From a virus (taxonomy: Duplodnaviria > Heunggongvirae > Uroviricota > Caudoviricetes): DNA of 49,096 nucleotides. Below are positions 45,601 through 48,600 of this stretch, in pieces (position 1 is the stretch's first letter; the number at the start of each line of letters is the position of its first letter). The position numbers were made by a program. Location: the IMG/VR virus record IMGVR_UViG_2541047773_000006; one strand, 5' to 3'.

Positions 45601-48600
45601 TGCTATGTTATTTTCAACACTTGAGCCGGGAATCCGTAATCACGTGAATATTATTGCACCACCAGATCCAACGCAGGCCAGTGGTGGAGTGCTTGATTAT
45701 GCTGTAGTTGGAAACTCAGTGAGTTTTGTGCTTCCCCTGTTGAGGGCTTCGCTGTTATTTGGGTTGTTAAGAGGGCAAATTGCCTCTGATCACTTTCCGG
45801 TTGGCTTCATTCCCGGAAGAGGAGCTAGAAGATGAGAATAATTATTACGATTTTGGTTTTATTGCTGACGGGATGTACTTCTGATGCGGTAAATCAACGA
45901 GGGCTTCTCACTCAGTTTGCTGGCAACAATGCTTCTGGAGATCCTGAACCCAGACCTGTGTTGGTTAATATTAGAAACGTTCTTACTGGTGGGATACTCA
46001 GAAACCCTGTAGGTCGTGACTTCAATGTAAATAATTGGGTTATATCAGAAGTAAAGACTAATGATTTGGATTTGATATCGGCACCGGGGGGGCATGTTCA
46101 GATAAAAAACCCTGATGGTAATGAATGCCTTGCAATTCTAAATGGGCAATTAGCAGTGGCTAAACAATGCACTGAAAGCAATCGCAATGCATTATTTACA
46201 TTTATAACCAGTGAAACTGGAGCTGTGCAAATCAAGTCGATTGGAAATGGTCAATGTTTGGGGAATGGAGAAAGTGTTACAGATTTCAGGTTAACAAAAT
46301 GTGTTAATGATCTGAGCCGTCCTTTTGATACGGTGTCGCCGGGATTACTTTGGATGCTGAATCCACCATTATCTCCGGCAATAATGTCTCCATTGACGAT
46401 CTAATCCGGAATTATCAATAAAACCGCAGCACGTCGTAAGCAAGAGCGTGCTGTGGTTGGATGCTATTTTTTATTATTGTATATCTACTTCAGCATTTCC
46501 TGGGCAGGATATATTTTCTGTTTTCTGTGGAGTGAGCAGGTGATGTACAACTGCTTTATCCACACATAAATTGACTCCGGTAAGAGCTAATGTATGCCCA
46601 TCACCATTTATTGTCAGTAACGGGCTGGAAAATTTATCTGCCATCTTGCGAGCATTAATCCAGGGCGTTGTTGGGTCGTATTTGTGTGCTACAAACAGTA
46701 AACCCGAGGGCAGAACTGTATTTTTCAGACGAGTTTTGTTCAGGTCGCTATGTATTGGCCACAATTCACAAAAATCAGGTGAATCAGAGCGTCCATTGTC
46801 AAAGTTAATAGCTGGGAAGGCATTCTCAAGAGCGTCTTTTCGGTATTTTCTCTCTTCTGGTGTTAATTTATCATCTCCCTGATCAACACAAAGGATTACC
46901 CCCAAAGCATCGCTTGACTCTTCTGAGGCTATTGGAGCACTGAGCGCAGTTTCAATTTCATTACTGACAATCCCCTGTGAGAACTGGCGTATGGCAGTTG
47001 CAAGGGTTGGCCATGATGAACGCCATAATAGAAGGTCTGTTGTTAATGATATGAGTTCATCTGAAGATATATTTTCTCCCTTGCTGTCGATTAAAGGTCT
47101 GTGATGCAATTTTAATAACAGGTCGTGGAACTGAGTTATTGCCTTATCTCTGTCTGAAGAAAGCGGGCAACTTTTTGTACGCGCACACCAGGATGCAAAG
47201 CGATCAAACGTTTCCTGATAACTTTGTGCCTGTTTGAGTTGCCATGTGAAGTTGTCCTCCGGGTCATCAATATCGACGACTCCATCCAGAACGATAGATC
47301 TGACGTTGTAAGGAAAACGTTCTGCATATAAGGCTGCAATTTGTGTTCCATACGAATACGCCACGGCTGTCAGTTGTTTATCACCCAAGGCTTGCCTAAT
47401 ACGATCAATATCATATACAGCCTCGTTAGAGCCTATATGGCGAATGACTTCGGCTCCGGTATTATGGATACATGCATTAATTTTATTTAATACTCGTTGC
47501 TTTTCGGTTATGTTTTCCTGAATCTCTGTATCTGATTGCTGGCAGTTTATTGTCGGAGTGGACTGTCCGACGCCTCGAGGATCAAATCCAATAATATCCC
47601 ATGACTCACGCAGATTTGTGACTGGCCAGTCAAAGTTAATATAAGGATTTATGCCTGGTAACCCGGGCCCACCACTTATTATCAGGATGCTTCCTTTATG
47701 CTTGCTTTTTGCCGGCAATTTTGTCAACGCTAGTTTGACTTGTGATTTTTTTTCATAAGAAGCATCTCCGCCTGTGTCTGTATATTTTAATGGAACAGAC
47801 AAATAACCACATAGTAAGTCAGGAGACGGTTTTTCCTCACCAAACCAGTGGTTGAATTGACTGGTCATACAGGATTGCCACTCGATCTGCTGGGCAGATA
47901 CGGTTACGGGTAGAAGTAAGGTTAAAACAATCTTGAAATGAGCAATTATCTTTCGCATTGTGCCTCTGAATATCAGTATAAATATAAAATTTGAATATAT
48001 TGCCCCCTGTGTTGCGGTAGGGGGCTACACGTTACGGATATTGGTCAAATGAGTACAAAATTAGAGAATGTTGTTTACTTTGAATAGCAGATAAACTCCC
48101 CGGGGCTATGCATTACCACCGGGGAGATTTTAGTTAACGGTGTTAAAAGGTGTACTTAAGACCAGCAGTAGTGATGAAATTATAGTTTTCTATGCCTGCA
48201 CCATTTTTGCTGTATTCAGAAGTATTATCATTATGGTCATAAAGTGAAGTATCACCTTTCTTATTCGTAACCCGATTCCATGCGCCTTCAACATAAACTT
48301 TTGCGTTAGGCGTTACGTAATAACCTGCATTGACTGCAACAGAATAGTAATTTTGGTCTTTGACTTTACTGCGATAAGTGATTCTTTTTCCTGGGTCATA
48401 GTGTTCATCGTTATCAGATGCTTCCACCCAGCCGCTGTATTTAAATGTGCCACCTAGTTCAAAATCTTCATAACGATAACTTCCAGTCAAGCCAATGTAG
48501 GGCATTTTAAAACGTTGTTTGTAGCCGATTGCTCTTTCTCCATTCGGGAAGGAGCCGATATCATCTCTGAATCCCTCCTCAGAACTGTAGATATAGGAAC

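Follow-up and report, generated by a model that had tools for sequence, protein, structure and literature searches.

A predicted exported S33/TAP-like hydrolase forms a two-gene unit with omptins on Escherichia coli phages and plasmids

The virus sequence IMGVR_UViG_2541047773_000006 of the IMG/VR collection (Caudoviricetes; 49,096 nucleotides (nt), the whole of which is called the window here) carries at its right end ompT and, directly downstream of it, a gene for a predicted alpha/beta-hydrolase that faces the cdt toxin genes. Omptin and hydrolase make up a two-gene unit whose linkage is tight and long-standing on phages and plasmids of E. coli, and beside which cdtABC has been inserted in this element. 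The favoured explanation, given a probability of about 0.6, is that the hydrolase is a Sec-exported, disulfide-stabilised serine hydrolase of the S33/tripeptidyl aminopeptidase (TAP)-like type and functions as an envelope peptidase co-expressed with the omptin. An initial annotation of the window had read the gene as an exported TAP-like/S33 alpha/beta-hydrolase brought in as cargo together with cdt, possibly to process toxin or host substrates; its enzymatic part is supported, and the parts concerning cdt cargo and toxin processing are not.

Of 5426 complete E. coli genomes, 1315 contain the hydrolase sequence, at 1271 chromosomal and 95 plasmid places. Subtracting 85 copies of a divergent type from the 1320 records with a near-complete hydrolase leaves about 1235 OmpT-type copies. 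Hydrolase and ompT taken together as one query reach a coverage of at least 80% in 1225 records, so that about 99% of the OmpT-type copies have an intact pair, in which the hydrolase immediately follows ompT in the same orientation. Carriers of the pair include phages 2G7b, ev243 and the PhiR series, the prophage remnants of the O157:H7 chromosome, and ColV-type plasmids. Eleven phage records contain the hydrolase, in each case without cdt and between the tail-fibre region and ompT-integrase, and the lambdoid phages that have the pair and lack cdt include inducible ones. The 85 divergent copies represent a second version of the pair: on IncF plasmids a hydrolase of 499 amino acids (77% identical) follows ompP; this OmpP-type pair is at least 80% covered on 156 plasmids of PLSDB and is present on an F' plasmid of K-12. 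Three more hydrolase variants (78-83% identity) each follow an omptin of 315 amino acids. Among loci located by tblastn and fetched, an omptin lies directly upstream on the same strand in 14 of 14 with a hydrolase at least 77% identical. The unit is carried by IncF plasmids and by lambdoid phages, in the latter within the accessory region near the attachment site.

The two genes also appear to have diverged in step: pairwise identities of omptin and hydrolase correlate with r 0.94 across seven pairs, whose 21 comparisons are not independent of one another. Order, orientation and adjacency are kept in at least five lineages, on phages as well as plasmids, at a synonymous divergence (dS) of about 1-2.5, which is saturation, and insertion sequence (IS) activity around the pair is frequent. 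The hydrolase open reading frame (ORF) is intact in more than 1200 genomes. The ratio of nonsynonymous to synonymous divergence (dN/dS) is 0.11-0.18 for the hydrolase at dS of about 1 and 0.06-0.13 for the omptin, values that indicate purifying selection on the hydrolase.

Two further records of the pair may be mentioned. On the F128 plasmid of K-12 DHB4 (fetched-locus 3941-4884), the ompP upstream of the hydrolase matches OmpT in two pieces in differing reading frames, which implies a frameshift or a sequencing error in the record; PLSDB lists no gene there. A contig of 4.3 kb labelled 'MAG: Bacillus sp.' (JBJEFM010000006.1) holds the E. coli ompT (99% amino-acid identity) and hydrolase (95%) as a pair, almost certainly through contamination or mis-binning.

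The hydrolase gene begins with ATG on the minus strand and, as had been proposed at the outset, is a convergent neighbour of cdtC (Table 1): the two genes lie on opposite strands with their stop codons facing each other over 69 nt. The encoded protein starts with MRKIIAHFKIVLTLLLPVTVSA followed by QQ, a Sec-type layout of basic n-region, 11-residue hydrophobic core and V-S-A cleavage motif. Leaders diverge among the hydrolase variants; the junction TVSA-(Q/R)(Q/R)-I-(E/Q)-WQSC is kept. This N-terminal layout, the VSA-QQ site and the conserved junction bear out the Sec signal peptide that the initial annotation had claimed. In an AlphaFold2 (AF2) model the per-residue confidence score (pLDDT) is low (about 55) over the first 20 residues and exceeds 90 from roughly residue 21 onward. 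A lipoprotein reading was ruled out, because no cysteine has a preceding lipobox and the VSA-Q site is conserved. The mature protein is predicted to have a mass of about 52.6 kDa and an isoelectric point of about 5.3.

Fold and catalytic residues are likewise supported by comparison. Pfam Abhydrolase_1 (PF00561) matches at 1.9e-33 (116.6 bits against a gathering score of 25.8), and the TAP-like domain Abhydrolase_4 (PF08386) matches residues 386-482 at 4.1e-15 (56.2 bits against 21). Built from 68 homologues, the AF2 model has a mean pLDDT of 89.5 and a predicted template-modelling score (pTM) of 0.90, and consists of an alpha/beta core with a large helical lid at about residues 232-410. The GGPG and AYSYG motifs noted earlier are present at residues 96-99 and 200-204. 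In the alignment of 68 sequences the catalytic residues follow the order Ser, Asp, His, with the serine in a small-x-Ser-x-small elbow; the conservation of this triad, which could have undone the enzyme reading, leaves it standing. From the sequence, the protein is very probably an active exported hydrolase of the S33 type.

Databases offer little beyond this. All names given to the hydrolase are the generic 'alpha/beta hydrolase', PHROGs places both hydrolase and omptin in families of unknown function, and an Rfam scan gave no match in or near the hydrolase gene. Among NCBIfam models, prolyl aminopeptidases alone match, all far under cut-off; one of them, TIGR01249, was rejected as an assignment at 36 bits against a cut-off of 259.75, with the match confined to residues 170-263. 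The PADLOC model PDLC01094, 'TAP-like protein', matches at 3.6e-58, and together with the position of the gene in the accessory region of temperate phages this could be taken to indicate a prophage- or plasmid-borne anti-phage or superinfection-exclusion factor. That role is very unlikely: the PDLC01094 label is generic and the match reflects homology rather than membership in a system, no PADLOC model matches the omptin, the product is a predicted exported enzyme with disulfides, and chromosomal homologues lie in non-phage contexts.

The closest solved structure is Hip1 of Mycobacterium tuberculosis (Rv2224c, CaeA, deposited as 'Carboxylesterase A'), a cell-envelope serine protease/esterase that aligns over residues 21-475 of the hydrolase with an E value of 2e-51. 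Similarity extends over the full length in sequence and fold, lid domain included, and Foldseek with the AF2 model ranks Hip1 entries first (TM 0.78-0.82). The triad Ser202, Asp428 and His455 corresponds to the nucleophile Ser228, the acid Asp463 and the base His490 of Hip1; Gly97 and Tyr203 correspond to its oxyanion-hole residues Gly110 and Tyr229, and Thr431 to Thr466, which adjoins the catalytic aspartate (residue roles in Hip1 are from PMC13041806, including the oxyanion hole, and PMC4022732). The hydrolase has exactly 10 cysteines, all conserved among homologues; in the sequence alignment nine of the ten align with Hip1, for which five disulfides are predicted (PMC4022732), and the tenth lies outside the aligned region. 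Ten conserved cysteines, nine of them shared with Hip1, fit an exported protein. Sequence and model thus place the hydrolase in the Hip1 structural subfamily of S33/TAP-like alpha/beta-hydrolases. It differs from Hip1 in its Gram-negative host, its residence on mobile elements, its elbow (A-Y-S-Y-G rather than G-Y-S-Y-G) and its pairing with an omptin, a protein that mycobacteria lack. Streptomyces Tap, SlpD and SlpE (MEROPS S33; PF08386 'TAP-like') are secreted or envelope-associated enzymes that share the same two Pfam domains above threshold, and Hip1 itself was first assigned to the Streptomyces tripeptidyl aminopeptidase family (PMC4022732); plasmid-borne relatives in Streptomyces are just 22-30% identical to the hydrolase.

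Hip1 is a proven serine protease and esterase that cleaves azocasein, peptide p-nitroanilide substrates and GroEL2, the latter after Arg12, and that also hydrolyses p-nitrophenyl butyrate (PMC4022732). By analogy with it, peptidase activity is somewhat favoured for the hydrolase over other chemistry. An unlikely alternative is that the enzyme is a carboxylesterase, lipase or lactonase, or has some other activity on lipids, acyl-homoserine lactones or small molecules in the envelope. The name under which Hip1 was deposited and its action on p-nitrophenyl butyrate would fit such an enzyme, as would the label 'putative lactone hydrolase' in one phage record and the differences from Hip1 in the lid and S2-pocket residues. 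The next closest structures, moreover, are TnmK1 and TnmK2 of tiancimycin biosynthesis, which have a secreted-hydrolase fold, and TnmK1 is nearly as close as Hip1 in structure. In sequence, though, Hip1 at 2e-51 stands far above TnmK1 (2e-18) and TnmK2 (6e-9), and these two belong to a secondary-metabolite gene cluster rather than to an accessory gene pair of mobile elements. The TAP-like C-terminal domain and the NCBIfam matches, weak as they are and limited to prolyl aminopeptidases, also argue for a peptidase. So do three S1-pocket residues of Hip1, Val254, Gln267 and Thr466, which are kept, judged by sequence alignment alone, as Val228, Gln243 and Thr431.

Spacers between omptin and hydrolase range over 92-188 nt among the pairs (a value of 128 nt at one locus results from a start codon called too late), and the OmpP-type spacer is 92 nt. 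Most pairs compared have a CCCCGG...CCGGGG hairpin at the start of the spacer, clearest in the OmpT and OmpP types; in the window it has a folding energy of -22.3 kcal/mol (z -3.5) and a moderate U-tract. A consensus scan of the ompT-hydrolase spacer detected no promoter-like site, which leaves a promoter possible, and inspection by eye revealed weak, non-conserved -10-like hexamers alone. Past the hydrolase, the hairpin in the spacer toward cdtC folds at -23.1 kcal/mol on the plus strand (z -3.2) and at -17.9 on the minus strand, where a U-run follows. In O157:H7 Sakai the same gene in the same arrangement is ECs1662, adjoining ompT (ECs1663); ECs1662 is expressed in exponential phase and drops more than 4-fold on entering stationary phase, as does ompT, and both fall in the same expression cluster.

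On the favoured explanation, the hydrolase would owe most of its transcription to read-through from ompT past a leaky hairpin, and its product would be cleaved after Ala22 and fold in the periplasm with five disulfides. Ser202, Asp428 and His455, with Gly97 and Tyr203 as oxyanion hole, would then cleave peptide bonds and probably esters too, like Hip1. The enzyme would act in the cell envelope on peptides or proteins, plausibly including the pieces left at the cell surface when the omptin cuts cationic antimicrobial peptides or host proteins. Such cooperation between the two enzymes is a tentative suggestion, a little short of even odds.

Several observations weigh against this explanation. 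In the same sequence alignment as above, other S1 residues of Hip1 are altered (Arg232 to Gln, Lys469 to Ile) and its S2 residues are not kept, Tyr342 being replaced by Leu311 and Tyr372 falling in a gap. Hip1 prefers Leu or Gln at P1 and Lys at P2 (PMC13041806); with its pocket residues partly lost, this specificity is not transferable to the hydrolase. Transcription could end altogether at the hairpin after ompT, and the Sakai expression cluster is growth-related and so very large that it is weak evidence of co-regulation. No functional study of the hydrolase was found in the literature. In many E. coli, K-12 and ST131-like strains among them, ompT has been retained and the hydrolase lost, from which it follows that OmpT does not need it. 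Finally, tblastn located no omptin within 4-5 kb of the hydrolase at any locus where it is 54% identical or less; these loci are from Salmonella, Budvicia, Serratia, Yersinia thracica, Enterobacillus, Providencia, Chromobacterium and actinomycetes, and the distant search covered Salmonella, Budvicia and Serratia plasmids plus 47 loci of other species in GTDB species-representative genomes. This limits the pairing to the mobile-element clade of Escherichia and, taken with the strains that have ompT alone, this means that neither enzyme needs the other.

The loss of the hydrolase can be seen in some detail. Compared with O157:H7, the DLP12-type locus of an ST131-like strain has a clean gap of 1975 bp that comprises a tail-fibre-assembly fragment, the hydrolase and 29 bp upstream (about 6000-6010 of the ST131-like fetched locus against 8540-10514 of that from O157:H7), with an 8-bp overlap at the junction that points to a microhomology-mediated deletion. 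Strains of the K-12 type lose similarity to the window earlier, just past the ompT hairpin.

A serious competitor, judged clearly less likely than the favoured explanation, is that the hydrolase is an active exported peptidase whose tie to the omptin reflects history alone, both genes having been captured once together and travelling since as a block, with unrelated substrates and no coupling in function. The distant homologues without a nearby omptin and the DLP12-type loci that retain ompT after clean loss of the hydrolase agree with it, as does the gathering of unrelated genes at the same site in other phages, such as those for catalase and ferritin-like proteins in O157:H7, or cdt in the window. 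Against a purely historical linkage stand the preservation of adjacency, order and orientation at saturated dS in phage and plasmid lineages despite the frequent IS activity, and the short OmpP-type spacer, which has little room for a promoter of its own. Read-through transcription from the omptin is what we infer.

The relation to cdt is of a different kind. The suggestion that the hydrolase was co-acquired with cdt, and processes the toxin or its host targets, drew on the convergent position next to cdtC, which recurs in APEC O1 (the same layout, with cdt-IV), and on a similar AT-richness. The composition is as described: G+C is 42.3% for the hydrolase, 40.5-42.9% for cdtA, cdtB and cdtC and 43.3% for ompT, against 47.1% for the whole window. 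The distribution largely refutes the suggestion and makes it hardly credible. When complete E. coli genomes were searched with a query of cdtB-cdtC plus hydrolase (at least 80% covered), cdtBC adjoined the hydrolase in 14 of about 1315 genomes that carry it; in all others similarity starts at base 1460 of the query, one base past the hydrolase stop codon, and about 30 genomes match cdtBC without the hydrolase. The constant partner of the hydrolase is ompT, and the phages with the pair lack cdt. Nor does the gene belong to the core chromosome, a further possibility that had been raised, because every copy lies on a plasmid, a prophage or the remnant of one, but it is abundant in strains without any cdt prophage.

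Comparison with the cdt-less phage 2G7b gives the boundaries of the insertion. Relative to that phage, cdtABC with its flanks (window about 43788-46423) is a separate insertion, situated between a tail-fibre-associated ORF of 96 amino acids and a terminator segment; window positions 46424-46472 share homology with a ybcY-like methyltransferase gene that cdt-less phages have, namely with its 3' end and terminator, and the window lacks the methyltransferase and tail-fibre-assembly fragments that usually precede the hydrolase. By this sequence comparison the cdt cassette and the omptin-hydrolase unit are unrelated modules. In O157:H7 PV15-279 (fetched-locus 5078-7291), manganese catalase, two ferritin-like genes, a general stress protein and IS1203 lie between the tail fibres and the methyltransferase-hydrolase-ompT block. 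With these genes in O157:H7 and cdt in the window, the site collects unrelated accessory genes, and the tail-fibre/hydrolase site appears from the sequences to be a hot spot for their insertion. RefSeq names in a genome identical to the window (window 44304-46404) assign CdtA to type I and CdtB and CdtC to type IV, all three being type IV in APEC O1; this suggests a mosaic cdt operon in the window.

Earlier literature already describes the gene and its place beside cdt. A 'putative protease' named rorf1, downstream of cdt-I/cdt-IV and accompanied by rorf2, an 'OmpT-like protease', was reported by Toth et al. 2009 as summarised in PMC4606577, where rorf1 is equated with ECs1662; in that earlier work the gene serves as a marker of the prophage framing of cdt. 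The Hip1 relationship, the pairing with several omptin types and the independence from cdt were not found in earlier accounts, Toth et al. 2009 itself left aside, and as far as found the omptin partnership had not been pointed out. With the hydrolase, a known enzyme family gains a new member that is as yet uncharacterised. On the ColV plasmid pS88 a 'hypothetical protein', pS88154, which may or may not be the hydrolase, lies beside ompTp and is reported to be raised 4.4-fold in one growth condition and 3-fold in vivo, ompTp not being induced.

Research on OmpT and related proteins treats them as determinants of antimicrobial-peptide resistance and as markers for pathogenic E. coli strains. Roughly one in four complete E. 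coli genomes has, directly after an omptin, a homologue, intact and maintained by selection, of a validated virulence protease of M. tuberculosis, and the carriers include O157:H7 strains, APEC O1, ColV-type plasmids and F-type plasmids. It is conceivable, if doubtful, that omptin and Hip1-like hydrolase constitute a mobile two-enzyme system of envelope proteolysis, in which the omptin in the outer membrane would cut cationic host-defence peptides or host proteins at the surface and the co-expressed, exported hydrolase would finish the fragments or process a target in the envelope or the host, comparable to the processing of GroEL2 by Hip1. If so, phenotypes reported for the 'ompT' locus in enterohaemorrhagic E. 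coli, on the ColV-type plasmids of avian and extraintestinal pathogenic E. coli and on F-type plasmids would depend in part on an overlooked second gene. With a role in peptide resistance or immune modulation, studies of ompT-only mutants and marker typing would need re-reading. Existing Hip1 substrates and inhibitors would be ready-made tools for the hydrolase. For the window itself, the suggested link to the cdt toxin is removed. The result is not surprising in kind; it is an inexpensive and testable lead on a very common gene beside a much-studied virulence marker.

Table 1. Positions in the window of the hydrolase gene, its predicted functional sites and neighbouring features
Feature	Position	Strand	Basis or remark
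Hydrolase coding sequence	46474..47958	-	ATG ORF, 494 amino acids (ORF listing)
Signal peptide, residues 1-22, predicted signal peptidase I cleavage VSA-QQ	47893..47958	-	Sequence and hydropathy
GGPG motif, G96-G99	47662..47673	-	Invariant in 68 homologues; Gly97 aligns with Hip1 oxyanion-hole Gly110
Nucleophile elbow A200-Y-S202-Y-G204 (Ser202 codon 47353-47355)	47347..47361	-	S202, Y203 and G204 invariant (68 homologues)
Catalytic Asp428 codon	46675..46677	-	Invariant (68 homologues); aligns with Hip1 Asp463
Catalytic His455 codon	46594..46596	-	Kept in at least 90% of 68 homologues, invariant in 19 closer; aligns with Hip1 His490
ompT, 317 amino acids, upstream partner of hydrolase gene	48143..49096	-	ORF and RefSeq name
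ompT-hydrolase intergenic region, 184 nt	47959..48142	-	Holds GC-rich hairpin 48096-48126 just past ompT stop codon
Hairpin in cdtC-hydrolase spacer, probable terminator of hydrolase transcript	46422..46458	.	Folding
cdtC	45832..46404	+	ORF listing; faces hydrolase gene
cdtABC	44304..46404	+	RefSeq annotation of identical genome; neighbouring insertion outside the omptin-hydrolase unit
Integrase ORF	1-1236	-	Left end of the window

The window as a whole runs from the integrase at its left end through RalA and sok RNAs, two tRNAs, and head and tail genes to the hydrolase and ompT at the far right, where it stops at the ompT start codon. Its OmpT is 99.4% identical in amino-acid sequence to that of the DLP12 locus. 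Rfam matches are to the small RNA RalA (RalR antitoxin, 219 bits), sok antitoxin RNA and two adjoining tRNA genes (window 1557-1735, 12902-13077 and 15479-15629), and these, with the integrase ORF, identify the window as a complete Rac-like lambdoid prophage. An identical region is present in E. coli chromosomes, adjoining uspF-ompN-nifJ. The gpJ tail-tip region (window 36000-40000) has 58-59% G+C against 40-43% at the cdt/hydrolase/ompT end, which illustrates the mosaic composition of the element. At window 41147-43213 there is a single unbroken ORF of 688 amino acids with a middle part rich in Ala, Glu and Ser; in the identical genome, RefSeq has two partial pseudogenes over this stretch, one with a tail-fibre N-terminal domain and the other with a head-spike-fibre domain.

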